From Candidatus Aceula meridiana (GTDB lineage: Bacteria > Omnitrophota > Gorgyraeia > Zapsychrales > Aceulaceae): DNA of 64,000 nucleotides. The translations under genes were made by a program, and so were the position numbers. This document shows, in pieces, positions 17,564 to 33,998 of this stretch. The stretch is from assembly GCA_030765185.1 (NCBI GenBank), contig JAVCDE010000026.1, positions 108,007-172,006 on the forward strand, given 5' to 3'. Positions within the stretch are counted from its first letter, which is position 1, and the number at the start of each line of letters is the position of its first letter. The notes beneath the pieces were generated by a model. The model worked only from the letters and a program-made list of their open reading frames with translations. It was not told the DNA's origin and did no database searches.

Positions 17564-20500
17564 ATGCCAAGGCGCACAGACATCAGAAAAGTTCTTATCA
17601 TCGGTTCCGGTCCAATCATTATTGGTCAAGCTTGTGAATTTGATTATTCAGGGACGCAGGCCTGTAAGGCTCTTAAAGAGGAAGGATTTGAAGTTGTTTT
17701 AGTCAATTCAAATCCGGCGACGATTATGACAGACCCGGGCATGGCAGATAAAACATATATTGAACCTTTAACCGTCGAAAGCATTACAGCAATTATCGAA
17801 AAGGAGCGTCCTGATGCTTTGCTTCCAAACCTTGGCGGCCAAACAGGACTCAATCTTTCTTCAGCGCTGCATAAGGCTGGCATTTTAAAGAAACATGGCG
17901 TTCAAATTATTGGTGTCAAAATTGATGCGATTGAACGGGGTGAAGACCGTATTGCTTTTAAAAATACAATGAATAAGCTCGGCGTTGAAATGCCGAAATC
18001 AGAGCCGTGTCATTCTGTTGAAGAAGCCGAGGTCATTGCTGAAAATTTAGGATATCCTGTGGTTCTAAGGCCTGCTTATACAATGGGAGGCACAGGTGGA
18101 GGAATTGCTTATAACGTCGAAGAGCTTCGCACCATTGTTGCCCGAGGACTCGCCGTAAGCATTGTTCATCAGGTTTTGGTTGAAGAATCTGTTTTTGGCT
18201 GGGAAGAGCTAGAGTTGGAAGTTGTTCGTGACGAAAAGAATCAAAAAATTACAGTTTGTTTTATTGAAAATATTGATGCCATGGGCGTTCATACCGGAGA
18301 TAGTTTTTGTACAGCGCCGATGTATACAGTCCCTAAAGAGCTTCAAGAAAGGCTCCAGAAGATCTCTTATGATATTGTCGAGGCCATCGGAGTTGTGGGC
18401 GGAACAAATGTTCAGTTTGCTCATAATTTAAAGGATGACAGACTTGTTGTTATTGAAATTAATCCTCGAACATCACGCTCATCAGCACTGGCTTCTAAAG
18501 CAACCGGATTTCCAATTGCCCTTATTTCAACAAAGCTAGCTGCCGGGCTCACCATGGATGAAATTCCTTACTGGAGAGACGGAACGCTTGAAAAATATAC
18601 GCCGTGGGGAGATTATGTTGTTATTAAGTTTGCCCGTTGGGCTTTTGAGAAATTTCCACAAGCCAAAGATGTTTTAGGAACTCAGATGAAGGCCGTCGGT
18701 GAGGCTATGAGCATCGCAAAAACATTTAAAGAGGCTTTTCAGAAATCAATTCGTTCTTTAGAAATTAAACGCTTTGGTTTAGGTGGCGCTAAGAATTTTA
18801 AAGACCTTCCATTAGAAGATTTAAAACAACGCTTAAGCTCTCCATCAAGTGAACGCGTATTTTTGATGTACGAAGCTTTGCGCAAGGGAATGAGCGTCGA
18901 AGATTTATATCAGCTGACGTTTATCGGAAGAAAATTTATCGAAGAGACGAAAGAGCTCGTTGACTTTGAAGAAGAGATTATTAAATTACCGTTTGATAAA
19001 CTTCCCGATGAGAAGCTAGCAGAGGCTAAAGAGATGGGCTTTGCAGATCGTTATTTAGCAGATCTTTTTAAAATTCCAGAGAAAAAAGTTCGGGAAAAAA
19101 GAATTGCCAAGGGAATTACTGCACGCTACGAAGCAGTTCCGGTTAGCGGAGTCGAAAACGCGGCTTATTATTATTCAACATATAAAGACATTAAGGACCA
19201 GGTGCCGGTTTCCCCTAATAGAAAAATTATGATTTTAGGCGGCGGGCCTAACCGTATTGGGCAGGGGATTGAATTTGATTATACTTGTGTCCATGCAGCA
19301 TTTGCTCTTCGAGACGAAGGACTCGAATCAGTTATGGTTAATTGTAATCCAGAGACTGTGTCGACGGATTATGATACATCGAACAAACTTTATTTTGAAC
19401 CCCTCACCGTTGAAGATGTTTTAAACATTTATCATAAAGAAAAACCTGAGGGCGTGATTGTGCAATTTGGCGGGCAGACACCGCTTAATATCGCTCAAGA
19501 GTTAAAAGACAATGGCGTTCCTATTTTAGGAACAAGTCCTGAAAGTATTCATTTCGCCGAAGACCGAGAACGTTTTCGTCAGAAAATGATTGATCTTAAA
19601 ATTCCTCAGCCTGAAAGCGGAACAGCAAAATCTTTAGACCAAGCGCTCAAGATTGCGCAGCGGATTGGGTATCCTCTGATGGTTCGGCCTTCTTATGTTT
19701 TAGGAGGTAGGGGCATGGAAATTATTTATGATGAGGAATCTTTAAGAAGATATGCTATCGAGGCTATTAAGGTGAGCCCGGAACATCCTATGTTGATTGA
19801 CCGGTTCCTCGAGAAAGCTATTGAAACAGAGGTCGACGCTGTATCTGATGGGGAAGAAGTTTTCGTGGCTTCTGTTATGGAACACATTGAACTCGCTGGT
19901 GTTCACTCTGGTGATTCAGCTTGTTCGATTCCAAGCCGGACAATAAAAAAAGAACACATGCAAACGATTGAAGAATACACTAAAGCCATTGCCAAGGAGC
20001 TTAAGGTTATTGGCTTGATGAATATTCAGTTTGCGATTTGCGATGACAAAGTTTATATCTTAGAAGCAAATCCTCGAGCCTCAAGAACGGTTCCGATTGT
20101 TTCTAAGGTCGCAGGAATTTCTTTAGCACGTATTGCCACACAGATTATGCTGGGCAAAAAGGTAAAGGACTTCCCAGAACTAAAGGCAAAGAAGATTCCT
20201 TATGTTGGCGTCAAAGAGGCTGTATTTCCTTTTAATATGTTCCCAGAAGTTGACCCTATTCTAGGCCCAGAGATGAGAGCCACCGGTGAGGTTATGGGAC
20301 TTGCGGATACTTTTGGATTAGCTTTTTATAAAGCACAAGAATCTGCCGGATACAAGTTGCCGCTTGAAGGCAACGTCTTGTTGACCGTCGCTCAAAAAGA
20401 CAGAGAAAATCTTCTTCCTATTGCAAAGAATATTAAGTCATTAGGATTTAATATTATTGCGACAGAGGGGACAAGTAAATTTTTAAATGAAAATAATATC

Positions 20501-20803
20501 AACAATACTTTAATTAAGAAATTGTACGAGGGGAGGCCAAACATCGCTGATGCAATTAAAAACAGCGAGCTAGATCTTATTATTAATACGCCGATTGGCA
20601 AAGACAGCAAATATGATGACAGTTATATTCGTATGATGGCGATTCAGAGAAAAGTTCCTTATGTTACATCTGTGGCTGCTGCTCAGGTAACTATCGATGG
20701 GATCGACGCGATGGTCAAAAGTAAAGTTATCCCAAAATCATTACAAGAGTATCACGAGATTCTTCATAAGCAACAATCTGTTCTTGATGAAGCTGTTAAG
20801 TGA
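17564..20803 (+). CDS. carB: carbamoyl-phosphate synthase large subunit
   Basis: 1079 aa with duplicated ATP-grasp halves (VLIIGSGPIIIGQACEFDYSGTQA and IMILGGGPNRIGQGIEFDY) and a C-terminal MGS-like domain. Confidence 0.95.
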   Translation: MPRRTDIRKVLIIGSGPIIIGQACEFDYSGTQACKALKEEGFEVVLVNSNPATIMTDPGMADKTYIEPLTVESITAIIEKERPDALLPNLGGQTGLNLSSALHKAGILKKHGVQIIGVKIDAIERGEDRIAFKNTMNKLGVEMPKSEPCHSVEEAEVIAENLGYPVVLRPAYTMGGTGGGIAYNVEELRTIVARGLAVSIVHQVLVEESVFGWEELELEVVRDEKNQKITVCFIENIDAMGVHTGDSFCTAPMYTVPKELQERLQKISYDIVEAIGVVGGTNVQFAHNLKDDRLVVIEINPRTSRSSALASKATGFPIALISTKLAAGLTMDEIPYWRDGTLEKYTPWGDYVVIKFARWAFEKFPQAKDVLGTQMKAVGEAMSIAKTFKEAFQKSIRSLEIKRFGLGGAKNFKDLPLEDLKQRLSSPSSERVFLMYEALRKGMSVEDLYQLTFIGRKFIEETKELVDFEEEIIKLPFDKLPDEKLAEAKEMGFADRYLADLFKIPEKKVREKRIAKGITARYEAVPVSGVENAAYYYSTYKDIKDQVPVSPNRKIMILGGGPNRIGQGIEFDYTCVHAAFALRDEGLESVMVNCNPETVSTDYDTSNKLYFEPLTVEDVLNIYHKEKPEGVIVQFGGQTPLNIAQELKDNGVPILGTSPESIHFAEDRERFRQKMIDLKIPQPESGTAKSLDQALKIAQRIGYPLMVRPSYVLGGRGMEIIYDEESLRRYAIEAIKVSPEHPMLIDRFLEKAIETEVDAVSDGEEVFVASVMEHIELAGVHSGDSACSIPSRTIKKEHMQTIEEYTKAIAKELKVIGLMNIQFAICDDKVYILEANPRASRTVPIVSKVAGISLARIATQIMLGKKVKDFPELKAKKIPYVGVKEAVFPFNMFPEVDPILGPEMRATGEVMGLADTFGLAFYKAQESAGYKLPLEGNVLLTVAQKDRENLLPIAKNIKSLGFNIIATEGTSKFLNENNINNTLIKKLYEGRPNIADAIKNSELDLIINTPIGKDSKYDDSYIRMMAIQRKVPYVTSVAAAQVTIDGIDAMVKSKVIPKSLQEYHEILHKQQSVLDEAVK

Positions 20804-20928
20804 AGCTCTTCGGCCTAAAGGCCGAGGCTTCCTCCCGATAAGAAAATAAGATTTATTTATTTTTTAGGCCAAAGCCCGGGATTTTTGCAAGGGATTAAAG
20901 TTATTATAAGCAGAAAGAGGAGAGTAAC

Positions 20929-22410
20929 ATGAGTGGAATTTGTGGAGCAGTTTCTAGGCAAAATTGCGCGAAAACATTATTTTATGGCATTGATTATCAT
21001 TCGCATTTAGGAACAGAATACGGTGGTATGGCTATCTGGGGGAAAGAGCTTTTTCGTCGGATTCATCATATTAGCCAAACTCAATTTAAATCTAAGTTCT
21101 TTGATGACTATCGGGATATGAATGGCAATTTAGGCATTGGCGTGATCAGCGACTTGGATGAACAGCCGATCTATTTAAATTCAAAGTTTGGGCCATTTTG
21201 CATCGTGACCGCTGGCCTTGTTGAAAACAAAGAAGATCTTGAAAAATTTCTTTTTGAAAAAGGAATTTCGTTTTCTGAAGTTAGCCCGGCTGGTCTTAAT
21301 ACCACCGAACTTATTGCTAAGTTGATTAGCCTTGGGGACAATTTGATCGATGGCATTGAGAAAATGTTTGATAAAATTGAAGGATCCTGTTCGCTCTTGC
21401 TTTTAACCAAGGATGGAGTTTATGCAGCGCGTGACAGACTCGGATATACTCCACTTGTGATTGGAAAAAAGGAAGGGGAATGGATTGTTGCCTCAGAAAG
21501 CAATGCATTGCCAAATCTCGGCTTTAAGATTGAAAAGTTTTTAGAGCCTGGCGAAATTGCACTTTTAAATAAAGACGGCCTAACCGTTGCTAAACCGGGA
21601 TTAGATAAAAGTCAGATATGTTCATTTTTATGGATATACACTGGATTTCCGGCCTCGATATACGATGGCATTAACGTCGAGACTGTCCGCGAGCGTTGCG
21701 GAAGAGCCATGGCGAAAAAAGATAAGGATATCAACGCAGATGTTGTCTCTGGAGTTCCTGACTCAGGGATAGCTCATGCGATTGGCTATGCCATGGAATC
21801 TGGCGTGCCTTATCGTCGCCCTCTTGTAAAATATACCCCTGGCTATGGCCGAAGCTATACGCCTCCGAGTCAAGAAACAAGAGACCTTGTCGCGACCATG
21901 AAACTTATTCCTGTTAAAGATATTATTAATGGAAACAGCATTGTTGTTTGCGAAGATTCTATTGTCCGCGGAACGCAGCTTAAGAATTTTACGGTTAATA
22001 AACTTTGGGACGCTGGGGCAAAAGAAATTCATGTCAGACCTGCCTGCCCTCCTCTAATGTTTCCTTGCAAATTTTGCCTTTCAACAAAAAGCATCAATGA
22101 GTTGGCAGCTCGTAAAGCTATCAAAGGCTTAGAGGGTAAAGACATCGAAAATATTTCTGAATATCTAGATACAAGCACTGAAAAGTATAAAAAAATGGTT
22201 GAGTGGATTCGAAAAGATTTGGAAGTAACCACTCTTCGTTATCAGGATCTTGAGGATATGGTTGAGGCTATTGGTTTGCCGCGTGAAAAATTGTGTCTTT
22301 ATTGTTGGAATGGTGAGTGCCCTCCAAAAGATCAGGACAAAACTAAAAAAATAAAAAGAGCAACAGGCTTGCTTAGCAAAATAGTAAGTTTATTTAAAAA
22401 AGAGGCTTAA
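20929..22410 (+). CDS. purF: amidophosphoribosyltransferase with short propeptide and C-terminal Cys cluster
   Basis: MSGIC|G exposes an N-terminal Cys (Ntn amidotransferase). The PRTase region SGVPDSGIAHAIGYAMESGVPYR ... CEDSIVRGTQ is present, and LCLYCWNGEC is a 4Fe-4S-type tail. Confidence 0.8.
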   Translation: MSGICGAVSRQNCAKTLFYGIDYHSHLGTEYGGMAIWGKELFRRIHHISQTQFKSKFFDDYRDMNGNLGIGVISDLDEQPIYLNSKFGPFCIVTAGLVENKEDLEKFLFEKGISFSEVSPAGLNTTELIAKLISLGDNLIDGIEKMFDKIEGSCSLLLLTKDGVYAARDRLGYTPLVIGKKEGEWIVASESNALPNLGFKIEKFLEPGEIALLNKDGLTVAKPGLDKSQICSFLWIYTGFPASIYDGINVETVRERCGRAMAKKDKDINADVVSGVPDSGIAHAIGYAMESGVPYRRPLVKYTPGYGRSYTPPSQETRDLVATMKLIPVKDIINGNSIVVCEDSIVRGTQLKNFTVNKLWDAGAKEIHVRPACPPLMFPCKFCLSTKSINELAARKAIKGLEGKDIENISEYLDTSTEKYKKMVEWIRKDLEVTTLRYQDLEDMVEAIGLPREKLCLYCWNGECPPKDQDKTKKIKRATGLLSKIVSLFKKEA

Positions 22411-22610
22411 ACAGATAAGCCTGCAAGTTGTGTTTCTATGGGTGAGAAGTGCGGCGGTTTTTGATATTAATCTTTTTCTCCTATCAGCATAGCTATTTAG
22501 CAAATTCTGAGATCCTTTTCTATTTTGCTTGATTATATTTATGTTTATTTATATAATGTATTCAAGTTATCATAACTCCTTTTACAGCAGAGACTTTACA
22601 TCGTAATTAA

Positions 22611-23018
22611 ATGAAATTTTCCAAAGAGCTTCCTACGAAATTAGAAATTATTCCGCAAGTGATAGATGAGCTTCTTGGTCAGATTGACGAGTCTTTTTTT
22701 GGAAAAAATGATGCTTTTCATATTAAGCTATGTCTAGAGGAAGCTTTAGTTAACGCCATGAAGCATGGCAACAAGCTTAACCCCGACTTTACCGTTAATT
22801 TAGCTGCTGAAGCAGATTCTGAGGCCCTTTTAATAACAATCGTTAATCAGGGAGATGGATTTGAGCACGAGAGCATCGACGATCCTACCAAAGAGCATAA
22901 CCTTAGAAAGCCTTCCGGCCGAGGAGTCTTTATTATTAAAACTGAGATGGACGAAGTTGAGTTTTTTGACCAAGGCCGAGGACTTAAAATGACAAAATTT
23001 TTTAACAAGGAGAAATAA
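22611..23018 (+). CDS. anti-sigma-factor-like serine kinase (RsbW/SpoIIAB family, HATPase_c)
   Basis: 135 aa. EEALVNAMKHGN (N-box) and GRGVFIIKTEMDEVEF (G-box). Confidence 0.7.
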   Translation: MKFSKELPTKLEIIPQVIDELLGQIDESFFGKNDAFHIKLCLEEALVNAMKHGNKLNPDFTVNLAAEADSEALLITIVNQGDGFEHESIDDPTKEHNLRKPSGRGVFIIKTEMDEVEFFDQGRGLKMTKFFNKEK

Positions 23019-23023
23019 GCGAA

Positions 23024-23356
23024 GTGAATATCAAACAAGAGCAAATTAATGATGTCGTTGTTTGTGTTATGGATGGGGAAATCAATATCAGCAATTCACC
23101 TGAGTTGCGTAAATTCTTTGATGATGTGCTAAAGACGAATACAAAAAAGGTTATTTTTGATTTCTCCTTTGTTCCTTATATTGACAGCTCTGGCTTAGCA
23201 ACTTTAATCGAGATGTTCCAGCGTCTAAAGAAGGTGGGGGGTGCTTTGCGTCTCTGCAGTATGAGCGAAAAGATCAAGAATATTTTTGAGCTTACTAAGC
23301 TTACTAAGCTTTTTGATATATCAGAAACTCGCGAAAATGCTTTAAAGGATTTCTAA
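23024..23356 (+). CDS. STAS-domain protein (anti-sigma-factor antagonist / MlaB-like)
   Basis: 110 aa. DFSFVPYIDSSGLATL carries the conserved phosphorylatable Ser in the DSSG context. Confidence 0.75.
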   Translation: MNIKQEQINDVVVCVMDGEINISNSPELRKFFDDVLKTNTKKVIFDFSFVPYIDSSGLATLIEMFQRLKKVGGALRLCSMSEKIKNIFELTKLTKLFDISETRENALKDF

Positions 23357-24139
23357 ATGATTACGTATATTGGAAAATTTATTATTGAATATGCCGGATG
23401 GGCCAAGGGTCTCTTAAAATTATTTGGTGAAATTCTTTATTGGATTTTTATTGGACCTTTTAAAGGAAAAACAGCGCAAAGGCTCAATGTTTTTCAGCAG
23501 ATGATGTTTGTTGGTTTGGCCTCGGTTGTTATTGTGGTTTTTGTAGATTTCTTTACGGGCGTTGTCTTGGCTATGCAAAGTGCGTATGTTTTAGAGAAGA
23601 TGGGTGCAGAGCTTTATGTGGCCTCTTTGGTTTCTGTCTCGCTTTGTAGGGAGCTTGGTCCTGTTTTAACAGGACTTGTCATTGCCGGCCGTGTTGGATC
23701 AGCGATTGCCGCTGAGCTTGGGACTATGAAGGTAACCGAGCAAATTGAAGCGCTTGAAACTATGGCGATTAATCCGGTACGTTTTTTGGCGACACCGCGG
23801 TTTTTAGCACTTTTGGTAATGTTGCCTGCACTGACCATTTTAGGAGATTTGGCTGGTATTTTCGGAGGCTTCTTAATAGGAACAAAAAGTCTTGGCATTA
23901 ATCCTGATCTTTATATTCAAATTTCTTTTAAATATTTGGAACTTAAAGATATCTTTACTGGTCTTTTAAAGGCTGGTGTATTTGGAATTATTATTGCCTT
24001 AGTAGCGTGTTATGAAGGTCTAAATACTCGAGGTGGTGCTGAGGGTGTTGGACGCGCGACAACACGAAGTGTCGTTTTAAGCTTTATTTTAATTATTGCA
24101 GCTGATTGTGTTGTTACAGCGTTCTTTTTCTTTTTTTAG
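23357..24139 (+). CDS. mlaE: MlaE-family ABC permease
   Basis: 260-aa polytopic protein with LGPVLTGLVIAGRVGSAIAAELGTMKVTEQIEALE, the MlaE signature region. Confidence 0.8.
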   Translation: MITYIGKFIIEYAGWAKGLLKLFGEILYWIFIGPFKGKTAQRLNVFQQMMFVGLASVVIVVFVDFFTGVVLAMQSAYVLEKMGAELYVASLVSVSLCRELGPVLTGLVIAGRVGSAIAAELGTMKVTEQIEALETMAINPVRFLATPRFLALLVMLPALTILGDLAGIFGGFLIGTKSLGINPDLYIQISFKYLELKDIFTGLLKAGVFGIIIALVACYEGLNTRGGAEGVGRATTRSVVLSFILIIAADCVVTAFFFFF

Positions 24140-24203
24140 TGAGCTAAAGACGAGCTTACCCTGCGCCTAAATGACGCAGGATTAAATTTTTGCAAGGAGT
24201 TTT

Positions 24204-24992
24204 ATGAGCGTTAAAGAATGTAACGGTGAAGTGATAATATCACTAAGAAATGTTACAAAAAGTTTTCAAGGACGCAGGGTTATTAATGATGCATCTTTAG
24301 ATGTTAAATGCGGAGAAACTTTTATCATTATGGGTTGCTCGGGTTCTGGGAAAAGTACGCTTTTACGTCATATGACAGGTGCTATCCGCCCGGAAAAGGG
24401 GAGCATTTTTATTAAGGGCAAGGACATCGCCAACATTCCACTTAAAGATTTAGATGAAGTTAAAAAAACTTTTGGTATGTCTTTTCAATATTCTGCACTT
24501 TTAGATTCTCTGACCGTTGAAGAAAATGTTGCTCTTCCTCTTCGTGAGCACACTAAGCTTGCCGATGAAATTATTGATATCATTATTAAGATGAAGCTAT
24601 CTTTGGTGGGTTTACGTGGCTTCGAAGAGTATTATCCATCACAGATTTCCGGCGGGATGCGAAAACGTGTTGGCCTAGCCCGCGCGATTGCATTAGACCC
24701 GGATATTGTTTTTTATGACGAGCCCACATCAGGGCTAGATCCGGTTGTCGGTGGTATTACGGATAAACTTATTAAAGATTTAAGTTCAAAATTGATGATC
24801 ACTTCGGTTGTTGTCTCGCATGATATGCATAGTGTTTTTAAGATTGCTGACAGGATTGCCATGATTCACAAAGGGGCTATTGTTGAAATTGGTACGCCGG
24901 ATGAGATTAAGAATTCACAAAATCTTTTAGTTCAACAGTTTATTAATGGGAACCCCGAAGGACCAATAGATCTTTTTAAAGAACCGGAATAA
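24204..24992 (+). CDS. mlaF: MlaF-family ABC ATPase
   Basis: Walker A GCSGSGKST, signature ISGGMRKRV, Walker B IVFYDEPTSGLD. Confidence 0.85.
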   Translation: MSVKECNGEVIISLRNVTKSFQGRRVINDASLDVKCGETFIIMGCSGSGKSTLLRHMTGAIRPEKGSIFIKGKDIANIPLKDLDEVKKTFGMSFQYSALLDSLTVEENVALPLREHTKLADEIIDIIIKMKLSLVGLRGFEEYYPSQISGGMRKRVGLARAIALDPDIVFYDEPTSGLDPVVGGITDKLIKDLSSKLMITSVVVSHDMHSVFKIADRIAMIHKGAIVEIGTPDEIKNSQNLLVQQFINGNPEGPIDLFKEPE

Positions 24993-25032
24993 AAATTTTA
25001 CAAGAAGATAAAAAATAAGAGAGGATGTTTCT

Positions 25033-25695
25033 ATGAAGAGAAAGAATATAGCCAATGAATTTAAGGTGGGCTTGTTTGTCGTAATATGCCTTTTAGCGTT
25101 ATTTTATATGGCCTATCGTACAGGCAAGCTGGACTTGCGTGCAAAAGGCTATTACGTTTATGTCATTTTTGATGAGGCGGCTGGCCTTGGAAACAAGGCA
25201 CCGGTTATGCTTAATGGACTTGAAATTGGGAAGGTTGTCGAGATCAAGCCGACATATGAAGGGGGCCTAACTAAAATAAAACTTAAAGTTTGGCTTGAAG
25301 ATGAGGCTAGAATTCGCGAAGGCTCTACCCTTTCTATTAAAATGATGGGTATGATGGGAGAAAAATATATCCAGATTTCTTCTTCAGATAATAAAAATTT
25401 TGTTGTTCCCGAGACTGTGGTCAAGGGAGATACTTATGTTGATTTAGACGTCCTTTTGCGTAATATCAATTCTTTAGTTGAAGAAAATAAGAATAGTGTT
25501 TTTGAAGCCCTTAATAGCTTAAATATGCTTTTGGGTAATTTGAATGAAACAGTCGGCGAGAACAGGGAAAGTTTAACGCGCATTATTCAGAATTTCGAGA
25601 CGACATCACAAAATTTCGAAGAATATAGCGATGACCTAAAACGAAATCCTTGGAAACTTTTATTTAAAACAAAAGAAAACCCCTGTGTAAAATAA
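25033..25695 (+). CDS. mlaD: MCE-domain protein (MlaD-like)
   Basis: N-terminal TM followed by an MCE-like beta-rich domain. Operon context with mlaEF. Confidence 0.65.
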   Translation: MKRKNIANEFKVGLFVVICLLALFYMAYRTGKLDLRAKGYYVYVIFDEAAGLGNKAPVMLNGLEIGKVVEIKPTYEGGLTKIKLKVWLEDEARIREGSTLSIKMMGMMGEKYIQISSSDNKNFVVPETVVKGDTYVDLDVLLRNINSLVEENKNSVFEALNSLNMLLGNLNETVGENRESLTRIIQNFETTSQNFEEYSDDLKRNPWKLLFKTKENPCVK

Positions 25696-25708
25696 AAAGG
25701 AGAGCCAG

Positions 25709-26467
25709 ATGAAAAAAATTATTTTCTTCTTAAGTTTGTGTTGTTTTGTTTTGTGCGCATCTTTGAGCTTCGCGCAAACAGCAAAGATTATTGATATTTC
25801 GGGAAGAGTTTTTGTTAAAGAGAGCTTAGATGGCGAATGGACAGAAGCTAGTATCGGTGTTTTTTTAAGCAAAGATGCAGCTCTTAAAACCAAGAGAAGC
25901 TCGAGCTGTACATTGGCTTTTGACAAGGAAATGAAAAACATTTTTACGATTGGGGAAAATTCTCAAATCGTTATCGAAGATGTTAATGGTGGTGTTTTTC
26001 TAAAACGCGGACGTGTTTTTTCTTTAGTTGATAACGCTTCTGCTGGACAAAAGTTCGAAGTTCGCACTCCCGTTGCCATTGCCGGTGCCAGAGGAACAGG
26101 ATGGGTTACTTATCATAAGGGCATGAAGACTAAGGTTCTTGTTTTTGAAAGGACAGTTTCTGTTGAAGGTGAAGATGGTAAAAAGAAAGATATCAAGATG
26201 GGTTTCGGAATTATTATTAATCCAGACGGGTCTTTAGGAGAAGAATTTCCTCTAGATGAAAAAGACTGGGCTGATTGGAAAGAATTTAAAAGCGGAGAAC
26301 AAGATCCCCGCAGCGGTTTTGGGCCTTGGGATGGCAGCAGCGGTGGATTTGAAGGCGACAGCAAAGAAGACTTCCGTGATTTTATTCGTCAGAAGGAAAG
26401 GGAAAGTCAAGAGAGTAGCACTCCAGACAGCCCTCCAGACCCAAATATTTACGAAAGCTTAGAGTAA
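25709..26467 (+). CDS. exported FecR-domain-like protein
   Basis: Signal peptide. The beta-rich region resembles the FecR domain. Assigned from recall. Confidence 0.4.
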   Translation: MKKIIFFLSLCCFVLCASLSFAQTAKIIDISGRVFVKESLDGEWTEASIGVFLSKDAALKTKRSSSCTLAFDKEMKNIFTIGENSQIVIEDVNGGVFLKRGRVFSLVDNASAGQKFEVRTPVAIAGARGTGWVTYHKGMKTKVLVFERTVSVEGEDGKKKDIKMGFGIIINPDGSLGEEFPLDEKDWADWKEFKSGEQDPRSGFGPWDGSSGGFEGDSKEDFRDFIRQKERESQESSTPDSPPDPNIYESLE

Positions 26468-26506
26468 TAGAAATTTATTAATAAAATTTTAAAAAAGGAT
26501 AAAACG

Positions 26507-27523
26507 ATGAAAAAGAATCTTTTAGCGATCGTCACCATTTCCTTTCTTATTGTAGGGTTGATGATTACAGGTGTTTTAGCTCAGATAAGCGATGATAAAC
26601 AAGATGAGGTTTCCCAGATTGAAGGGTTAATGGAAGAAGACTTTTGGGCAGATCCTTCTTACGACATTAAGCACTCTGCAGCTTTTTCTGTCGGATATGA
26701 TGATAATGTTAATTTGACGAAGAAAAAGAAATCCGATGTTTTTGAGAATTTCATTTATTCGCTGGATTATACTTTTGCAATAAACGATAAGCTAGATTTT
26801 ACACTTGATTATGATTTGGATTATATGAATTATGGGCAGTTTACGGATAATAATAATTTGATGAATCATATAAATATTGGCCTTGTAAAAGAAATTTCTC
26901 GCGTTGACTTAGGAGCTTCTTACGATTTTAGTTATTATCATTATCCCCATAACAAAGATGGGGATTTTTATTTTCACAAGGGGAAATTTTATATTCGGGA
27001 TTATTTTGCCGAGGGCCTCTATCATCAGCTTTCGATTATCCCGGGCTTAAAACGTCACGTTAACCGAAAGGCCTTAGCCAACAGTATTACAACTTTTCAA
27101 GATACCGAGAGAAGCGATGATCGTCAAACTTACGAGTACACGATTGGGGCGGTTGTTAATCCAAAGATTTTCTTAAAATTTACCGGAAGCCTTATCGTAA
27201 ACGAATCGAATGCTGAGTATGAAAATTTTTATGATTATAAGGCCTATCAATTGGCGCCAAGCATTTACTATAAGCTTTCCAAAAGACTTCAGCTTTTCTT
27301 TAATTATATGTATCGTTACAAGATGTTTAGAAATCGTACTGTAACCTATGATAATTACAAGCAAAGAGATAGGCTTTATGCGGCGAGTTTTGGGCTTAAT
27401 TTTCATTTAACGAAAAATAGCTCTTTATCCGCTTCTTATGCTTTTCGCAATAATTCCTCCAATGATGATGAAGAGTCTTACAATGGAAATGTTATCAACG
27501 TTGGATACCGGGTTCGGTTTTAG
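26507..27523 (+). CDS. outer-membrane beta-barrel protein (unknown family)
   Basis: Signal peptide, alternating aromatic/polar strands, and a C-terminal ...VGYRVRF aromatic terminus typical of OMPs. Confidence 0.4.
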   Translation: MKKNLLAIVTISFLIVGLMITGVLAQISDDKQDEVSQIEGLMEEDFWADPSYDIKHSAAFSVGYDDNVNLTKKKKSDVFENFIYSLDYTFAINDKLDFTLDYDLDYMNYGQFTDNNNLMNHINIGLVKEISRVDLGASYDFSYYHYPHNKDGDFYFHKGKFYIRDYFAEGLYHQLSIIPGLKRHVNRKALANSITTFQDTERSDDRQTYEYTIGAVVNPKIFLKFTGSLIVNESNAEYENFYDYKAYQLAPSIYYKLSKRLQLFFNYMYRYKMFRNRTVTYDNYKQRDRLYAASFGLNFHLTKNSSLSASYAFRNNSSNDDEESYNGNVINVGYRVRF

Positions 27524-27527
27524 TTAA

Positions 27528-29459
27528 TTGATATTAATGAAATTTTTAAAGAATATCCCCATGCGCTTCTGGGTTCTTTGTTTTGCCTGTTGCGCTATTC
27601 TTGCTATTCTCTTCCTAGGTTTATTAAAAAGCTATGAACATATCTTTTATGATTTGCGTTTTAGCCTACGCCCACCTTTAGCAGTTAGCGAACAGGCTGT
27701 TATCATTGAAATTTCTGACGACACTCTAAAGAATCTAAACAGTTGGCCGATTCCTCGAGATTTTCATGCAAGCTTAGTTGATGTCCTTAAAGAGAAGGGC
27801 GTAAAAAAGGTTGTCTTTGATATTATTTTTGAAGAGTCAACTTTTGAAGATGATATTTTTGCGCAGGCAATCGCTGACGCGGGGAATGTGTACCTGCCAT
27901 TAGTTTTTACCTTAGATGAAAAGAGCATAAAAGGCGTGTTAACATCAAGCCCGTCGATTTTGGCCAGCATAAATAGGAAATTCTCAGAAGTTGTTCAGGG
28001 TGCAGGACACATCAACGCTTTTGTTGATGAAGACGGAAAAGTAAGACGAGCACCTCTTTTTATTAAATATCAGAATAATTTTTATCCTCAAATCAGCCTC
28101 TTAGCTGCCTGCGATACCTTAGGCCTCGACATTAGAAATGTTCAATTTTTACCAGGCAAAGTTATTATTGATAATAAGCTTGTTTTGCCAGCATGCTGTA
28201 GTGGAGGCTTGGCAATTAATTACCCAGGTAAGTGGGGAGAAGCTTTTAAGCATTTTTCATATTTTGAAATTTTAAAGTCATATGCTCAGGAGCAAAGAGG
28301 CGAGAAACCTTTGCTTGATTTATCGGCTCTTCAAGATAAAGTTTGTTTCGTTGGGCTTACTGCTGCCGGGACATCCGATTTTAGTCCGACGCCAGTTAGC
28401 AAGATTTATCCGATGTTAGGGTCGCAGGCTAGTATTTTTAGCAGTATTATAACCAACCAGATGATTGTTGATGTTGGGCTTGTAGGTAATGCGTTAATAG
28501 GACTAATGGTTTTCTTTTTAAGTCTTTGGATATCTTTAAGGCTTTCAGCTCTACGCGCCCTTTTAGGAATTTTAGGATTAGCGGCAGCAGTTTTTTTAAT
28601 CTCAACAGCGCTTTTTATCTTTTTTGGAATTTGGACAGGATTGTTTTTGCCACTTTTGATTATCGTTGTGACATATGTCGCGTGTGTTTCTTATCGGTTT
28701 TTTAGCGAGATTCGCAAGCGTGAACTTTTAGAAAAAGAACTTGAGATTGCCCGCACTATTCAGCAAAACTTTTTGCCTGACGAGATGCCCACGCTTGACA
28801 ATTGGGAGGTGGCCGCGTTTATGCAAGCGGCAAAGTTTGTTGCAGGCGATCTTTATGATGTTCTCCCTTTAGATGAAAAACATTTAGGCGTTTTAATCGG
28901 CGATGTTTCAGGCAAGGGGGCTCCAGCCGCTTTGATTATGGCAAAGACTATATCGCTGTTTCGTTTGTTCGCCAGGGAGGGGGCAAGCTGCGCGCAAGTG
29001 CTAGAGAAGCTTACGGCAGAGCTTTGCGGAAAATTTTCAGGGCGGTTTGTCACAAGCATTTATTTAAGAATTAATAAAGAGGGAAACGATGTCATTGCTG
29101 CCTCAGCCGGACACGAACCCCTTTTAGTTTATCGTCTGCAAAATGAAGGGAAGAAGATCGAAGAGATTGATTTACGCTCCGGCCTTCCTTTAGGTGTTCT
29201 CGAAGAGGGTAATTATGAAGAAGTCTCAGCTACGCTTAATAAAGGTGATAAGCTAATTTTTTTCTCAGATGGCTTATCAGAGGCGCGGAATAAAAAGGGT
29301 CAAGATATTGATTTTAAAGAAATCGAGAATGCTATTTTAGAAACATCCGAGCAAAGTGCCAAGCAAACCCTTGAAGCCTTAAAGAAAGCTGTTTTTCGAT
29401 TTTCTAAGGGTGCTGTTCAGCACGACGACATTACAATTATTGTTATTGCCAAAAAATAG
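27528..29459 (+). CDS. CHASE2 sensor - PP2C (SpoIIE/RsbU-type) serine phosphatase
   Basis: TM, ~270-aa extracytoplasmic domain, then 3 TM helices (CHASE2 architecture). The C-terminus FVAGDLYDV ... LIGDVSGKGAPAALIMA ... FSDGLSE is PP2C/SpoIIE-like. Confidence 0.75.
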   Translation: MILMKFLKNIPMRFWVLCFACCAILAILFLGLLKSYEHIFYDLRFSLRPPLAVSEQAVIIEISDDTLKNLNSWPIPRDFHASLVDVLKEKGVKKVVFDIIFEESTFEDDIFAQAIADAGNVYLPLVFTLDEKSIKGVLTSSPSILASINRKFSEVVQGAGHINAFVDEDGKVRRAPLFIKYQNNFYPQISLLAACDTLGLDIRNVQFLPGKVIIDNKLVLPACCSGGLAINYPGKWGEAFKHFSYFEILKSYAQEQRGEKPLLDLSALQDKVCFVGLTAAGTSDFSPTPVSKIYPMLGSQASIFSSIITNQMIVDVGLVGNALIGLMVFFLSLWISLRLSALRALLGILGLAAAVFLISTALFIFFGIWTGLFLPLLIIVVTYVACVSYRFFSEIRKRELLEKELEIARTIQQNFLPDEMPTLDNWEVAAFMQAAKFVAGDLYDVLPLDEKHLGVLIGDVSGKGAPAALIMAKTISLFRLFAREGASCAQVLEKLTAELCGKFSGRFVTSIYLRINKEGNDVIAASAGHEPLLVYRLQNEGKKIEEIDLRSGLPLGVLEEGNYEEVSATLNKGDKLIFFSDGLSEARNKKGQDIDFKEIENAILETSEQSAKQTLEALKKAVFRFSKGAVQHDDITIIVIAKK

Positions 29460-29472
29460 GGAGTAATTTCTT

Positions 29473-30246
29473 ATGGAAGAGATCAAAACACTCGAACAAC
29501 AAGCTTATGAATTTCTTGCCCAAAAAGATTATGATAATAGCTATAAGGCTTTTCGTCAGGCAGCAGAAGGATATGAACAGGAAAAGCAATTAAGTCAGGC
29601 AGCTTTGTGTTTTGCATCGGCAGCCAGCAGCTGGACGTTGAAGTTCGGCGAAGAGAATTTTCATCGTGCGGCTGTTTGTTATGAGAAGGCAGCTTTTGCG
29701 GCAAGAAAATCCGGCGATTTTAAATACGCTGCGCTTCTTTATAAGCATGCAGCGGTTGTGTATGAGAGGGATTTAGAGTTCTTAGATTTTTCTGAGTGTT
29801 TTTTTAAATCTAAAGAATGTTATCGGAAATTCTTAATTTTTAGTTTTTTAAAGCCAGAGCGGGCTTACAGCTTGACTTCCGGAGAAGGAAACAAGGGCGC
29901 GAGCGGGTTTTTCAAAAGACTTGTATCCTTGGTGGGCTTAAGTTTTTCTTCTCTTGTTTGGGGCCATGGCGAGAGGCCGGCACGGACATTTTTTTCAGGA
30001 TTCTTTTTCGTTGTTTTAGCTGCTATCTTTTATACCCAAGGGGAACTTATTAAAGCCGGGCTTGTTTTCAAGCCAGATTTCTTTGAGGCTTTTTATTTTA
30101 GTGTGATTACTTTTACAACTGTAGGTTATGGTGATATTACACCTATCGGGATCAACAAACTTATTGTGCTTATCGAAGCCTTCTCAGGGCTTTTTATCGT
30201 TCCTCTTTTTATTGTAGGCTTGTCGAGGAAGTATCTGCGCTTTTAA
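29473..30246 (+). CDS. K+-channel-like 2TM pore protein with N-terminal soluble helical domain
   Basis: TVGYGDITP selectivity-filter signature between two TM helices. Confidence 0.55.
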   Translation: MEEIKTLEQQAYEFLAQKDYDNSYKAFRQAAEGYEQEKQLSQAALCFASAASSWTLKFGEENFHRAAVCYEKAAFAARKSGDFKYAALLYKHAAVVYERDLEFLDFSECFFKSKECYRKFLIFSFLKPERAYSLTSGEGNKGASGFFKRLVSLVGLSFSSLVWGHGERPARTFFSGFFFVVLAAIFYTQGELIKAGLVFKPDFFEAFYFSVITFTTVGYGDITPIGINKLIVLIEAFSGLFIVPLFIVGLSRKYLRF

Positions 30247-30548
30247 ATGAGGACATGCTTTACGGAATAAATGACGTAAAGCATAAATCCGAATTTACCC
30301 TCTCTGATTTGGCCAAGGGTGAGCTTGCTTTAATACATATTCTGCTATAAATACTCTTCTTATTTATTCTTACTAATCTAAGTATAAAAGGTAACGCTTT
30401 CTTTTTAGCCCTTTAAACTCCTTATATTTCTTATTATATATATTATACTTATACGGTCAGGGTGAATTTTTAGCCTTTAGGTTAAGAAAATTTCTCACAA
30501 GCAGAAGCTTAAAAGTTTCTATTTGGGGTAGATAAATGGTAGGGAATT

Positions 30549-33500
30549 ATGATGAACAAATTTATAAACCAAAAAAATTTCCTTTATAAGGTAATCTGCA
30601 CGGGTATGATTTTTGTCTTCTTCATGGCGAGTTTGCCCGGGGAAGCTTTGGCCCAAGCGTCAAGTATTTTAGGCTTGCCTCAAGTCGGAAGTATAGTCCC
30701 CTTAAGCCCGGGATTCACTCCTCCCATTATTCGCGGAATGCGAGTCTATCCTAACAATCCACTCAAATTCGACTTCATCGTTTATTCGGGTGATTCTGGG
30801 CTTCAAGGGGATTTATTAAAACAGGAGTCTGAAAAACTTATTCGCTACTTTTTGGCCTCTTTAACCATCCCTGAGGATGACCTTTGGGTCAATCTCTCTC
30901 CTTATGAAAAAGACCGCATTGTACCTGATGCTTTGGGCCAGACCGAAATGGGCCGTGATATGTTGGCTCAGGACTATCTCTTAAAACAAGTTACAGCTTC
31001 GCTAATTTATCCAGAAGACGACTTAGGAAAACAATTCTGGCAGAAAATTTATAAGACAGCTTATGAAAAATATGGAACAACTAACATTCCTGTAGATACT
31101 TTTAACAAGGTTTGGATTGTGCCGCAAAAGGCTGTGGTTTATGCGCGTGGAGATAGAGCGTTTATTACAGAAAGTAAATTGAAGGTAATGTTGGAAGAGG
31201 ACTATTTAGCACTAGCGAATAACGGACAGGTTGCAGCGGATAGTAATCGTAAGAATATTGCTTCTCAAATTATTCGTGAGATTGTTATCCCTGAACTTGA
31301 AAAAGAAATAAATGAGGGTCAAAATTTTGCGCAGCTACGACAGATTTATCATTCTCTAATTTTAGCCTATTGGTTTAAGAATAATTTAAAAGATGCCATT
31401 TTAAACAAACTGTATTCAAGTCAAGAAAAAATAAAAGGTGTTGATGTTAAAGACAAAGACATTTCAAAGAAAATTTATAATCAGTATATTGCGTCTTTTA
31501 AAAAAGGCGTTTGTAACATGATAAAAATTGAGTATGACGCTTATGCCAGAAAGAATATTCCTCGTAAATATTTTTCTGGGGGCCTTGGACTTTTTGGCAA
31601 GAACTTGAAGGAAGCAATTAGCTTCGAAAGCTCTCCATCGGCAGAATTGGCAGAATTTGTTGAAGAGCAAAGCGTCGGGGCAGGATCTAATATCATTGCT
31701 GAGACAATGATATCTAATTTTAAAGAATCTTCAAAGCCAACCTTAGCAGAAGGAACTATCTCCTCAAGCGCAAGCCCCACAAGCTCGAACGCTGCCTTTC
31801 CAGAAACACGCACCTCACCTTTAAAAATGAAGGCGAAAGAGGGCATGCCTATTCTCCTTGACCATATTAAGAAGTTACAAGCTAAGAAGAATCAAGATTT
31901 TAAGGGCCGAAAAGAGGTTTTTAAATCAGAACAAGAAAAGACAGATGAAGGCTCTTCTTCTGCTATTCTCGTCGACGGATGGGTTTCGATTAAAGGGGAG
32001 AATTATTTTGTAGAGAAAGTAATTAGCCGAGAAAAACAGGAAGCCTTGGCCGGAGAATGGGATGAGCTTCAGCGTGATAAGATTAATTTAATTTTTAAAG
32101 GAAATAATTGGGTTAAAGCCTTTGAAGATTATCCGAATGGCGACCTGATCATCATTCGTTCTCAAGAAGGAAAACTTTTGGGGATGGTTTATTCTCATGA
32201 TGAGGATGTTAAAATTTTTAAGAAATTAAACCTAAAAAGAAGCACGATGGAGGGGCGAATTACTCTTATTGATTTGATTGAGGTTTCTGAAGGCTATCGT
32301 GCTCAGGCAAAGATGGAAGAGTTGGAAGTTAAAGGGGGCGGCTTGGGGCGTGCGCTGCTTGCAAGAGTGATTGAAGAAAGTTATCAGAATAAATCGATAG
32401 ACGAGAGTCTAAAGGGCCTTATTGCGCTTGTCCCTAACTATGGTGATACTTCAACAGGATTTTATAAAAAAATTATAGGGTTTGGGGATGCTTTTATTAA
32501 AACCAAGGCAGGAGTTAATGCGTGTTTCCTTCTTGGTAAACAAAAAGCTCAAGAAGTGCTTTTAAAAGCCAAAGAACAAATTGGAAAAATAGATTCACCG
32601 TTTGATTCTTTTCAGACAAAAAAAGACATTGTAACTGAAAGACAATATTTTCCTAAAGAAGGGTTAGCCATAGCTGAGCGTGAAGTGCAGTATGATTCCG
32701 GCACGCAATGGGTTATTGTTTATTTAAACAATCGCCCGGAGGGCATCCAACCTAATCGAGAGCTGCGCATCGGCCCGAATCATTTTTTAAAATATGTAAA
32801 GACTAATGAAGAAGCTTATTTAGAAGTATTCGAAGGCCCGATTGGCTCTGAAAAAAGCACAGCAAAGTATTATATTCAAGGAGAAGGCGATGAGCTAGAA
32901 GACGTCATCAGTTCTTCAGGGATTTTAAACGACATTAAGAAGTCTTTAAGCAACTTAAAAACTCCTTTAAGCACAATTATTCCTCGCCTTGCTAAAGAAG
33001 GATATGTTACTTTTGATGAATTATTCGAGAATGAAAATTTTAAGAAGGATTTTAATTATTTAAAAATAGCATTAGAAAATCAGCCCCGTATAGTTTTAAA
33101 AGATGTTTATGCTCAGCAGGTTTTTGCCGATGATTGGAACTCTGTTAGAGGCGATATTATGGCGATATTATTTGAGTCCATTATCGAAAAATCCTGGAAA
33201 GACGGTAAAGATGAAATTTGCCCTCTGCCTGCAGGTGAATTTCTCGAAGCATTGAAGCAGGTTGAAAAAGAAACGCAAAAAGTCTTTACGCGAAAAGATT
33301 CTACGGTTTTTGTCATTAGAAATGATGAGAAGATTGTTGGATTTATTCGAGGGCAACCGCTGACTTTAAGCCAGCGGTTTAAAATATTTTTCTTAAAAAT
33401 TTTACAACAAAAAAGCTTAAAAGATATCAGCTTTCAATGGAACAAATATTTTTATCTTGGGGAGAGTTTTATCCTCGATAATTATCAAAGAGGGTTAGGT

Positions 33501-33998
33501 ATAAAGCTCTTTCAAGAGATCAGAAAAGTAGCGCGACGCCAAGGCTACAAATATTTTATTACAAACACAGCTAATCCAAAGCTAGTAGATCTTTATCAAA
33601 AAATTGGCACTGAAATTTTAAAAGACCAGGAGCAAGGAGAGCATTATTTTGCTATTGCCATAGGCGATGAGCTTCTTTCAAAGGCTGCCCTTGGCGATGC
33701 ACGCAAAGGAAAATCTTCCTCGGCGGCTAGCTCCTTCCCCGGCAGTGTTGATCTTAAAGATAATTCCGTCATTTCCAGTCCTGGTGGTATCGATCTTAAA
33801 GGTGCGGATAGTTTTATTGAAACCCGTGGTGAGGGGATTGAATTTGATGTACCTCAAGAACTCTTAAATATGGACCCAGCCCAAATTACAGGTTTTATGC
33901 CGGTTATTATTAATATTATTCCGGTTACAAATTTCTCAGCCTTGCTGGGCCTTTCAGAAGCAGAAGAATTTCAGCTAAGTCAGCTAAGAGAGACCTGA
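30549..33998 (+). CDS. 1149-aa secreted protein containing two GNAT-like acyltransferase domains
   Basis: Cleavable signal peptide (ASLPGEALAQA). Two GNAT motif-A-like segments, KGGGLGRALLARVIEE and QRGLGIKLFQEIRKVARRQGY. The N-terminal ~450 aa are unrecognised. Confidence 0.5.
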   Translation: MMNKFINQKNFLYKVICTGMIFVFFMASLPGEALAQASSILGLPQVGSIVPLSPGFTPPIIRGMRVYPNNPLKFDFIVYSGDSGLQGDLLKQESEKLIRYFLASLTIPEDDLWVNLSPYEKDRIVPDALGQTEMGRDMLAQDYLLKQVTASLIYPEDDLGKQFWQKIYKTAYEKYGTTNIPVDTFNKVWIVPQKAVVYARGDRAFITESKLKVMLEEDYLALANNGQVAADSNRKNIASQIIREIVIPELEKEINEGQNFAQLRQIYHSLILAYWFKNNLKDAILNKLYSSQEKIKGVDVKDKDISKKIYNQYIASFKKGVCNMIKIEYDAYARKNIPRKYFSGGLGLFGKNLKEAISFESSPSAELAEFVEEQSVGAGSNIIAETMISNFKESSKPTLAEGTISSSASPTSSNAAFPETRTSPLKMKAKEGMPILLDHIKKLQAKKNQDFKGRKEVFKSEQEKTDEGSSSAILVDGWVSIKGENYFVEKVISREKQEALAGEWDELQRDKINLIFKGNNWVKAFEDYPNGDLIIIRSQEGKLLGMVYSHDEDVKIFKKLNLKRSTMEGRITLIDLIEVSEGYRAQAKMEELEVKGGGLGRALLARVIEESYQNKSIDESLKGLIALVPNYGDTSTGFYKKIIGFGDAFIKTKAGVNACFLLGKQKAQEVLLKAKEQIGKIDSPFDSFQTKKDIVTERQYFPKEGLAIAEREVQYDSGTQWVIVYLNNRPEGIQPNRELRIGPNHFLKYVKTNEEAYLEVFEGPIGSEKSTAKYYIQGEGDELEDVISSSGILNDIKKSLSNLKTPLSTIIPRLAKEGYVTFDELFENENFKKDFNYLKIALENQPRIVLKDVYAQQVFADDWNSVRGDIMAILFESIIEKSWKDGKDEICPLPAGEFLEALKQVEKETQKVFTRKDSTVFVIRNDEKIVGFIRGQPLTLSQRFKIFFLKILQQKSLKDISFQWNKYFYLGESFILDNYQRGLGIKLFQEIRKVARRQGYKYFITNTANPKLVDLYQKIGTEILKDQEQGEHYFAIAIGDELLSKAALGDARKGKSSSAASSFPGSVDLKDNSVISSPGGIDLKGADSFIETRGEGIEFDVPQELLNMDPAQITGFMPVIINIIPVTNFSALLGLSEAEEFQLSQLRET

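Follow-up and report, generated by a model that had tools for sequence, protein, structure and literature searches.

The stretch of DNA analysed here (the window, 64,000 nucleotides of Candidatus Aceula meridiana, phylum Omnitrophota; GenBank assembly GCA_030765185.1, contig JAVCDE010000026.1, positions 108,007 to 172,006 of the forward strand) contains, at positions 22611-29459, eight co-directional genes in which an RsbW/SpoIIAB-like serine kinase, a STAS protein and a CHASE2-PP2C phosphatase bracket the core of an Mla-type lipid ATP-binding cassette (ABC) transporter. Comparison of sequences and gene orders indicates that the STAS protein is probably an MlaB-type subunit whose docking to the ATPase MlaF is gated by reversible serine phosphorylation, the lipid transporter being thereby switched. 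On balance, and slightly less firmly, we are inclined to regard it as the first natural MlaB-type STAS protein with a dedicated kinase and a sensor phosphatase, and hence as a lipid ABC transporter that would be switched post-translationally through an envelope sensor. With MlaF as the partner of the STAS protein, this partner switch would have an ABC transporter as its output in place of a sigma factor. An earlier note, made from the sequence alone, had interpreted the operon as phosphorylation-controlled engagement of MlaB with MlaF, an interpretation which the comparative analysis, by inference, supports.

A putative partner-switching module around an Mla transporter operon

The eight open reading frames (ORFs) lie on the + strand at the coordinates previously assigned to them, and the domains recognized by Pfam and NCBIfam agree with the functions then proposed. 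The block begins with the kinase gene (22611-23018; 135 amino acids, HATPase_c_2 domain; Pfam, NCBIfam and motif check), followed by the gene of the STAS protein (23024-23356; 110 amino acids; Pfam, NCBIfam and alignments), the proposed MlaB-type subunit and kinase substrate. The transporter genes come next, encoding the permease MlaE (23357-24139; Pfam, NCBIfam and at least four hydrophobic segments), an MlaF-like ABC ATPase (24204-24992; Pfam, NCBIfam and PDB relatives) and a 220-amino-acid MlaD of the short type, with an MCE domain and an N-terminal membrane anchor (25033-25695; Pfam, NCBIfam and hydrophobicity scan). MlaE reaches 272.7 bits against PF02405 and 267.4 bits against TIGR00056 (cut-off 212.2), and MlaD 58.9 bits against PF02470 in addition to its one N-terminal hydrophobic segment. 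On these predictions, the Mla/MCE lipid ABC transporter core is all present, with MlaE, an MlaF-type ATPase and an anchored MCE protein, and homology points to an MlaE2F2D6 stoichiometry. No member of the MlaC or MlaA families was matched by Pfam or NCBIfam among the ten genes from 20929 to 30246. The last three genes of the block code for an exported FecR-domain protein with a signal peptide (25709-26467; Pfam, NCBIfam and hydrophobicity scan), an outer-membrane protein (OMP) of beta-barrel type (26507-27523; weak Pfam matches, a signal peptide and a C-terminal Phe) and the CHASE2-PP2C sensor phosphatase (27528-29459; Pfam, hydrophobicity scan and motif check). Among relatives the FecR-like gene is an optional part of the block, and so is the OMP gene, which is always paired with it. 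In a simple hydrophobicity scan, MlaD, the FecR-like protein and the OMP each show a segment of signal or anchor type at the N-terminus.

Along the block, the spacers measure 5, 0, 64, 40, 13, 39 and 4 nucleotides (nt); the range of 0-40 nt given earlier holds for six of them, the MlaE-to-MlaF spacer being 64 nt long. The junction between the STAS gene and mlaE, which was said to start 1 nt after the STAS stop, is tight indeed and has no spacer at all, the ATG of mlaE directly abutting the TAA of the STAS gene (TAAATG, 23354-23359) with a 0-nt gap. The two genes share one reading frame with a single TAA between them, and a gap of 0 nt is likewise seen in nine related loci; fusions of STAS and MlaE that occur naturally have been mentioned (PMC5016091).

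Conservation of the block among relatives

Related loci were collected by two scans. An MlaE scan over one genome per GTDB species gave 80 loci, in which ORFs were called and searched with the window proteins, and a metagenome scan seeded with the STAS alignment gave the best 80 relatives, from 70 to 37% identity (individual loci are designated by L numbers). The order kinase-STAS-MlaEFD is found in the four closest STAS-bearing loci (L001, L002, L003 and L005; MlaE identity 59-78%). Directly after MlaD, L005 has a CHASE2-PP2C gene, and L003 continues with the FecR-like and OMP genes up to the end of the contig. More broadly, MlaE lies directly 3' of the STAS gene in 65 of the 69 loci that offer 200 nt or more of sequence there, mostly at a distance below 25 nt; among the four exceptions, two are too short, one has unrelated sequence after the STAS gene and one is a true exception (L152). 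A HATPase_c_2 kinase gene stands directly 5' of the STAS gene in 49 of 64 loci, the kinase-less loci all being those with the most distant STAS proteins (at most 41% identity). At the other end of the block, CHASE2-PP2C follows MlaD, with or without the FecR-like and OMP genes between, in 13 of the 15 kinase-bearing Omnitrophota-type loci that extend at least 5.2 kb downstream. Kinase, STAS protein and PP2C are co-conserved from 70 to about 40% STAS identity.

Two further relatives, with independent gene calls and precomputed Pfam annotation, read HATPase_c_2, STAS, MlaE, ABC_tran, MlaD, FecR, BBP2_2/OMP_b-brl and CHASE2+SpoIIE. The gene upstream of the block is msrAB in one of them and TP_methylase in the other, and it is purF-like in the window. 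The repetition of the gene order in dozens of independent contigs with different flanks places the arrangement far beyond chance, and the different neighbours around the same order speak for the conservation of a functional unit, as opposed to a local accident. The co-occurrence of kinase, STAS, MlaEFD and PP2C genes across genomes, which the earlier note had put forward as a check, is thus borne out as that of a conserved unit in many Omnitrophota genomes and in varying contexts. Neither a STAS nor a kinase gene is present in most of the remaining mlaEFD operons of Omnitrophota (L007-L028 and others).

Regulators of other architectures occur at the same position. Directly 5' of STAS-mlaEFD, a high-GC metagenome contig (L144:3671-5401) encodes a 576-amino-acid GAF-PP2C (SpoIIE)-HATPase_c_2 fusion, which is a cytoplasmic-sensor version of the same kinase/phosphatase pairing. 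Pfam identifies upstream a PP2C together with a HATPase_c_2 protein in L157 and divergent stand-alone HATPase_c_2 proteins in L142 and L154, and STAS-mlaEFD is also found without any kinase (L034, L140, L150, L153 and L159). Two loci with MlaE identities of 60-65% (L004:4387-5745 and L006:2381-2770) have, in the kinase-STAS slot directly 5' of mlaE, one to three genes of stand-alone receiver (CheY-like) proteins, through which this transporter may be regulated in another way. A kinase-STAS pair of Thermoanaerobaculia/Acidobacteriota (L050, L053, L055 and L073) was considered as a second, independent association with Mla and rejected, because other genes separate the pair from mlaEFD, upstream of which it is found at a distance of 1-7 kb and on the opposite strand; in our judgement, this pairing reflects local synteny specific to the clade rather than a functional link.

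The STAS protein and its phosphosite

The STAS protein scores 78.6 bits against PF01740 and 82.4 bits against TIGR00377, a model of the anti-sigma-antagonist superfamily (cut-off 53.45), and the phosphorylatable serine of a DSSG motif ascribed to it was found in D54-S55-S56-G57. Ser55 (codon 23186-23188) aligns with Ser58 of SpoIIAA and with Thr52 of Escherichia coli MlaB. When the STAS family was compared by hhalign with E. coli MlaB (a query checked to be identical to PDB 6xbd_K), a match of 94.6% probability was obtained which places Ser55 on Thr52. The protein is, as such, a single STAS domain in an mla operon with Ser or Thr at the Thr52 position, and Ser or Thr is present in all six of the loci found through MlaE, the sole set that is unbiased for the phosphosite. 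In E. coli, Thr52 occupies the centre of the MlaF-MlaB interface and the T52E substitution weakens MlaF binding (PMC7367683), T52A abolishing ATPase activity (PMC7367683, PMC5016091). Phosphoregulation of MlaB at Thr52 has been proposed, without evidence, in two eLife papers (PMC5016091, PMC7367683). As to annotation, relatives of the window protein are recorded only as STAS or "anti-sigma B factor antagonist", and the identical deposited protein as "STAS domain-containing protein". The STAS protein of L001 reads DTAG at the position of DSSG in the window.

MlaF features that track the STAS protein

The best solved relatives of the window MlaF are the MlaF proteins of Acinetobacter baumannii, Pseudomonas aeruginosa and E. 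coli and mycobacterial MceG, with E-values of 1e-64 to 1e-53; against the E. coli equivalog model NF008809 it reaches 228 bits for a cut-off of 441, which assigns it at family level and not as an equivalog. For comparison, 42 STAS-linked and 27 STAS-less Omnitrophota MlaFs were aligned, two sets of similar diversity (mean identity 0.60 vs 0.62, mean entropy 1.14 vs 1.17 bits). Residues 111-140 (nt 24534-24623) have an entropy of 0.91 bits in the STAS-linked proteins vs 1.61 in the STAS-less ones; they are the most discrepant 30-residue window of MlaF, and none of 500 label permutations reached the observed contrast, a value to be read with the shared ancestry discussed below. The ratio of entropy in this segment to that in the rest of the protein is 0.79 in the STAS-linked MlaFs, and 1.45 and 1.18 in the STAS-less groups. 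The segment corresponds to the helical subdomain of MlaF, which is the MlaB-binding site in the E. coli MlaFB crystal structure (PMC7367683).

A second feature lies at the C-terminus. After the GP motif, the MlaF tail has a median length of 16 residues in the STAS-linked proteins and medians of 6 and 4.5 in the STAS-less groups, and the STAS-linked consensus is GPI.FFQQKDDYLE.L.K. The motif formed by a Tyr and a hydrophobic residue four positions on is present in 28 of 40 STAS-linked MlaFs vs none of 57 STAS-less ones. In ungapped alignments, the Tyr and Leu of the tail fall on Tyr261 and Leu265 of the P. aeruginosa and E. coli proteins (the E. coli sequence was checked against PDB 6xbd). Both belong to the C-terminal handshake of MlaF (Tyr261, Leu265 and Leu266), whose residues reach in between MlaB and the adjacent MlaF (PMC7367683). 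Kinase-less STAS-linked MlaFs also have the Tyr/Leu tail, and their segment entropy is 0.98 vs 1.14 elsewhere in the protein.

The STAS-linked MlaFs group into one clade when a neighbour-joining tree is computed with the tested regions left out. Nested in this clade is the MlaF of L004, a locus in which kinase, STAS protein and tail are all lost. The MlaFs of E. coli and A. baumannii are placed at the base of this clade or inside it, depending on the columns used, and this shifting placement is only suggestive of a common descent of MlaB-type systems.

Kinase and phosphatase

The kinase matches PF13581 with 71.9 bits, and its best named relatives are RsbW and SpoIIAB, its scores being below both NCBIfam equivalog cut-offs. 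Intact sites include E44 and N48 of the N-box, G81 and G83, and the G2 box G103-R-G105; both the N-box and the G2 box are invariant in 55 kinase sequences. The phosphatase combines CHASE2 (PF05226, 156.7 bits, residues 21-324) and SpoIIE/PP2C (PF07228, 145.6 bits). According to a hydrophobicity scan, a first transmembrane segment (residues 15-33) is followed by the periplasmic CHASE2 domain, a cluster of transmembrane segments at about 313-395 and the cytoplasmic PP2C domain at about 400-643. Its PP2C motifs GDLYD, GDVSGKG, GH.P, SDGL.EA.N and QHDDIT all agree with the family consensus. Since the window phosphatase keeps every family-conserved PP2C motif, it can be argued that a phosphorylated substrate still exists. 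As far as the alignments tell, the catalytic motifs of both kinase and phosphatase are under clear purifying selection.

Absence of a sigma factor in the neighbourhood

Three sigma probes, SigF, SigB and RpoE, whose sequences were confirmed by Pfam as members of the sigma-70 family, were searched with jackhmmer and phmmer and gave no match in 9,223 ORFs of the window and the 160 loci, a search from which diverse extracytoplasmic function (ECF) sigma factors could escape. Pfam found no sigma domain in 27 of the larger ORFs of the window, and queries with the partner-switch proteins revealed no further STAS, RsbW-like or PP2C gene within its 64 kb. The statement that purF and not a sigma factor lies upstream stands, the upstream gene being purF-like and no window ORF being matched by the sigma probes; so does the proposal of an output other than a sigma factor, no sigma-70-family gene having been found within about 10 kb in any of the 160 related loci. 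As for the designation of a "complete" partner-switching module, kinase, substrate and phosphatase are there and the sigma factor is not, the output partner being read here as MlaF.

Proposed mechanism and alternative readings

In the mechanism that we propose, the operon would be transcribed from its own promoter 5' of the kinase gene, with kinase, STAS protein and MlaE translationally coupled. The unphosphorylated STAS protein, in which Ser55 opens helix 2, would dock via its helical face on the MlaF helical subdomain and would stabilise or activate the ATPase, as in E. coli MlaFEDB. By binding the same face of the STAS protein and phosphorylating Ser55, the RsbW-like kinase would release phospho-STAS from MlaF and keep transport off by default. 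The CHASE2-PP2C protein, sensing an envelope or periplasmic cue with its CHASE2 domain, would then dephosphorylate phospho-STAS with its cytoplasmic PP2C domain and re-arm the transporter. In most relatives, the FecR-like protein and the OMP barrel probably serve the sensor as accessories, and a role of the two in the lipid path is possible.

Several observations weigh against this mechanism. The PDB relatives of the STAS protein (TM1442, 5e-14; SpoIIAA, 2e-12; also RsbV) are nearer to it than MlaB, no MlaB chain of the PDB matches it at E <= 0.01, the MlaB equivalog model NF033618 is not reached (28.8 bits for a cut-off of 90), and the protein is a full-length STAS domain and not of the minimal MlaB type. 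Conservation of the phosphosite was discounted as evidence, being partly forced by the pattern D[ST][SA]G that was required in the metagenome scan; to our knowledge, moreover, E. coli MlaB keeps Thr52 without any known kinase. Concerning MlaF, the tail of the window protein (24963-24992) ends with GPIDLFKEPE and the stop codon, before the handshake residues and with no hidden continuation, and the helical-subdomain motif PLREHT is also present in mycobacterial MceG, for which we know of no STAS partner. Since the STAS-linked MlaFs form a single clade, the correlations described above come down to roughly a single gain and a single loss, and their independence is overstated by the Fisher and permutation values; as these MlaFs are monophyletic, counting the correlations as independent events was rejected. 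The G1 box of the window kinase reads N79-Q-G-D-G (codon 22845-22847), with Asn at the adenine-contacting position held by Asp in 50 of 55 relatives. Finally, the kinase and STAS genes of L001 and L002 are not accompanied by a phosphatase gene within 5-10 kb, and some loci have a second STAS gene. Two of these peculiarities have parallels among the relatives, the G1 Asn recurring in the kinases of L001, L085, L088 and L106 (5 of 55 with that of the window) and the short MlaF tail in L001 and L091; an Asn79 kinase together with a short MlaF tail suggests that the window and L001 represent a derived sub-lineage.

In another reading, the kinase itself might be the effector, an RsbW-like protein inhibiting MlaF or MlaE until the unphosphorylated STAS protein relieves the inhibition by sequestering it. 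This would follow the canonical logic of RsbW/RsbV and SpoIIAB/SpoIIAA; in the Omnitrophota group the kinase is linked as tightly as the STAS protein (the 49 of 64 loci mentioned above), and the G1 Asn of the window kinase would fit a mainly binding, non-catalytic role. We consider it unlikely, however, since STAS-mlaEFD operons without a kinase exist, since the MlaF features track the STAS protein and not the kinase, being seen also in kinase-less STAS-linked MlaFs, and since the protein bound to MlaF in E. coli is the STAS protein (PMC7367683). A similarly low probability is given to a target located elsewhere, either a sigma factor of SigB/SigF type or another enzyme, with the Mla, FecR-like, OMP and CHASE2 proteins as co-regulated cargo or sensing input. 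The STAS protein and the kinase are sequence-typical of the anti-sigma-antagonist and anti-sigma families, the genome was inspected over 64 kb only, and switches with distal or unknown targets are known, such as Chlamydia Rsb, Bordetella Btr and Vibrio SypE/SypA (PMC11619594, PMC8256260). A distal target is nevertheless difficult to reconcile with the lack of a sigma-70-family gene around the 160 loci, with a STAS stop codon that abuts the mlaE start codon and with a block that moves as a unit between genomic contexts, and it leaves unexplained the STAS-correlated surface and tail features of MlaF.

It would also be conceivable that the STAS protein is a constitutive, structural MlaB-like subunit, its kinase and phosphatase neighbours being unrelated to it or relics. 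That E. coli MlaB works without a known kinase, that L001 and L002 lack a nearby phosphatase and that the G1 box of the window kinase is non-canonical would all fit. Against it stand the joint conservation of kinase, STAS protein and PP2C down to about 40% STAS identity, the purifying selection on the catalytic motifs and the recurrence of differing kinase/phosphatase architectures at the same position, which together make this reading highly improbable. Phosphorylation-gated docking of the STAS protein to MlaF is the reading that we retain as the most probable.

Should it be true, it would provide an answer from a natural system to the question raised in 2016 and 2020 about Thr52 of E. coli MlaB, and it would imply a rapid post-translational control of inter-membrane lipid traffic. 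Partner switching would then reach beyond transcription to the direct control of an ABC ATPase, ABC transporters joining its list of outputs, and a defined cytoplasmic output would be assigned to CHASE2, FecR-like proteins and an OMP barrel. As kinase, STAS protein and phosphatase are encoded beside the transporter as small soluble or separable domains, phosphoregulation of an MlaB-type protein becomes directly testable in vitro. These findings may also bear on envelope-lipid management in the ultra-small Omnitrophota, a phylum of which some members are thought to be host-dependent.

Flanking features and other observations

The best + strand match to a sigma-70-like promoter, TTGATT-17-TATAAT (10/12; 22529-22557), has the joint highest score in the scanned region and lies in the 200-nt gap 5' of the kinase gene; a terminator-like hairpin, found by a consensus scan, is located on the + strand directly after the purF-like gene (22427-22455). 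The two sites, which are no more than pattern matches, fit an independent transcription unit, with the hairpin parting the purF-like gene from the operon. Rfam, searched for an RNA leader or riboswitch, gave no match at E <= 0.1 within 20000-31000.

Downstream, 13 nt after the phosphatase gene and on the + strand, lies a K+-channel-like gene (29473-30246; Ion_trans_2 pore, Pfam) which may be co-transcribed with it. Its product joins an N-terminal half of helical repeats (SNAP/TPR-like) to a two-transmembrane K+-channel pore. A homologue is found 3' of the phosphatase gene in L095 and 5', on the opposite strand, in L003, the linkage being loose among relatives. Further on (30549-33998), the window encodes a large exported protein of 1149 amino acids in which a GNAT acetyltransferase domain at the C-terminus is the only domain recognised; its counterpart of 1605 amino acids in L001 (L001:12645-17462) comes directly after mlaD, in the slot that the FecR-like, OMP, PP2C and channel genes fill in the window.

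The second STAS genes seen in some loci are divergent (L161:16276-16665, L162:6670-7059, L084:2-256, L089:2-361 and L109:12353-12718) and are located immediately after CHASE2-PP2C, immediately before the gene of the kinase or close by on the opposite strand; no such gene is present in the window. Just 5' of the kinase gene, L005:3513-4478, L100:2-670 and L141:8519-9577 encode an accA-like protein, as judged by N-terminal sequence only, which would put a fatty-acid synthesis gene beside the operon. L163 carries a GyrA/topoisomerase IV subunit A gene with an intein (L163:1766-4765; Pfam Intein_splicing inside DNA_topoisoIV); in the same locus, the operon is followed at about 0.9 kb by a gene for the reverse transcriptase of a group II intron.

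Comparison with known systems

Full-text searches of the literature gave no paper that joins MlaB or Mla to RsbW, SpoIIAB, RsbU, PP2C or partner switching, and no account of the present arrangement was found. A review of STAS-only proteins does not mention Mla, lipids or ABC transporters, and the sole remark on MlaB in a phylogenomic survey of Mla is that it is sparsely distributed.

The MlaFEDB systems of E. coli, A. baumannii and P. aeruginosa include a STAS protein, MlaB, on which their ATPase MlaF relies as an obligate partner. The operon described here resembles them in uniting MlaE, MlaF and MlaD homologues with a single-domain STAS protein, in keeping the phosphosite-equivalent residue (Ser55/Thr52) and in the conserved helical subdomain of MlaF. 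The MlaF tails of the family are in register with theirs (F+4, D+10, Y+11 and L+15 after the GP motif), that of the window being truncated. It differs from them by the gene order (STAS-E-F-D vs F-E-D-C-B), by the absence of MlaC and MlaA from the operon, by a STAS protein that is full length, SpoIIAA-like and below the cut-off of the MlaB model, and by a dedicated kinase and phosphatase, none being known for MlaB, where the matter was left as an open question (PMC5016091, PMC7367683).

With the SpoIIAB/SpoIIAA/SpoIIE and RsbW/RsbV/RsbU systems of Bacillus it shares a HATPase_c_2 kinase, a STAS substrate with DSSG, a SpoIIE-family PP2C with a sensory N-terminus, and adjacent, translationally coupled kinase and STAS genes. 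It departs from them in having an ABC transporter within the module and no sigma factor in or near the operon, a membrane-embedded CHASE2 domain as the input of the phosphatase, and a kinase that is short (135 amino acids) and below the equivalog cut-offs. The STAS protein is itself the effector in Vibrio fischeri SypE/SypA, Pseudomonas HsbR/HsbA and Anabaena HenR/All4160, where its phosphorylation controls a non-sigma output and the unphosphorylated form is active. In SypE and HsbR, kinase and phosphatase are fused in one protein, as in the L144 variant. For none of the three pairs has a lipid ABC ATPase of the same operon, the target proposed here, been described, and a preprint on All4160/HenR extends partner switching to direct enzyme control (bioRxiv 10.64898/2026.04.08.717354).

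The sensory side recalls the Burkholderia BiofilmReg operon, in which an exported FecR-domain protein is paired with a CHASE2 sensor (PMC5192318); in both, an exported FecR-domain gene adjoins that of a CHASE2 membrane sensor. In the present operon, however, the output domain is PP2C and not a histidine kinase, an OMP gene lies between the FecR-like and CHASE2 genes, and relatives may lack the FecR-like and OMP genes. Taken together, we rate the arrangement as a combination of two known kinds of system, a partner-switching module and an MlaB-dependent Mla transporter.

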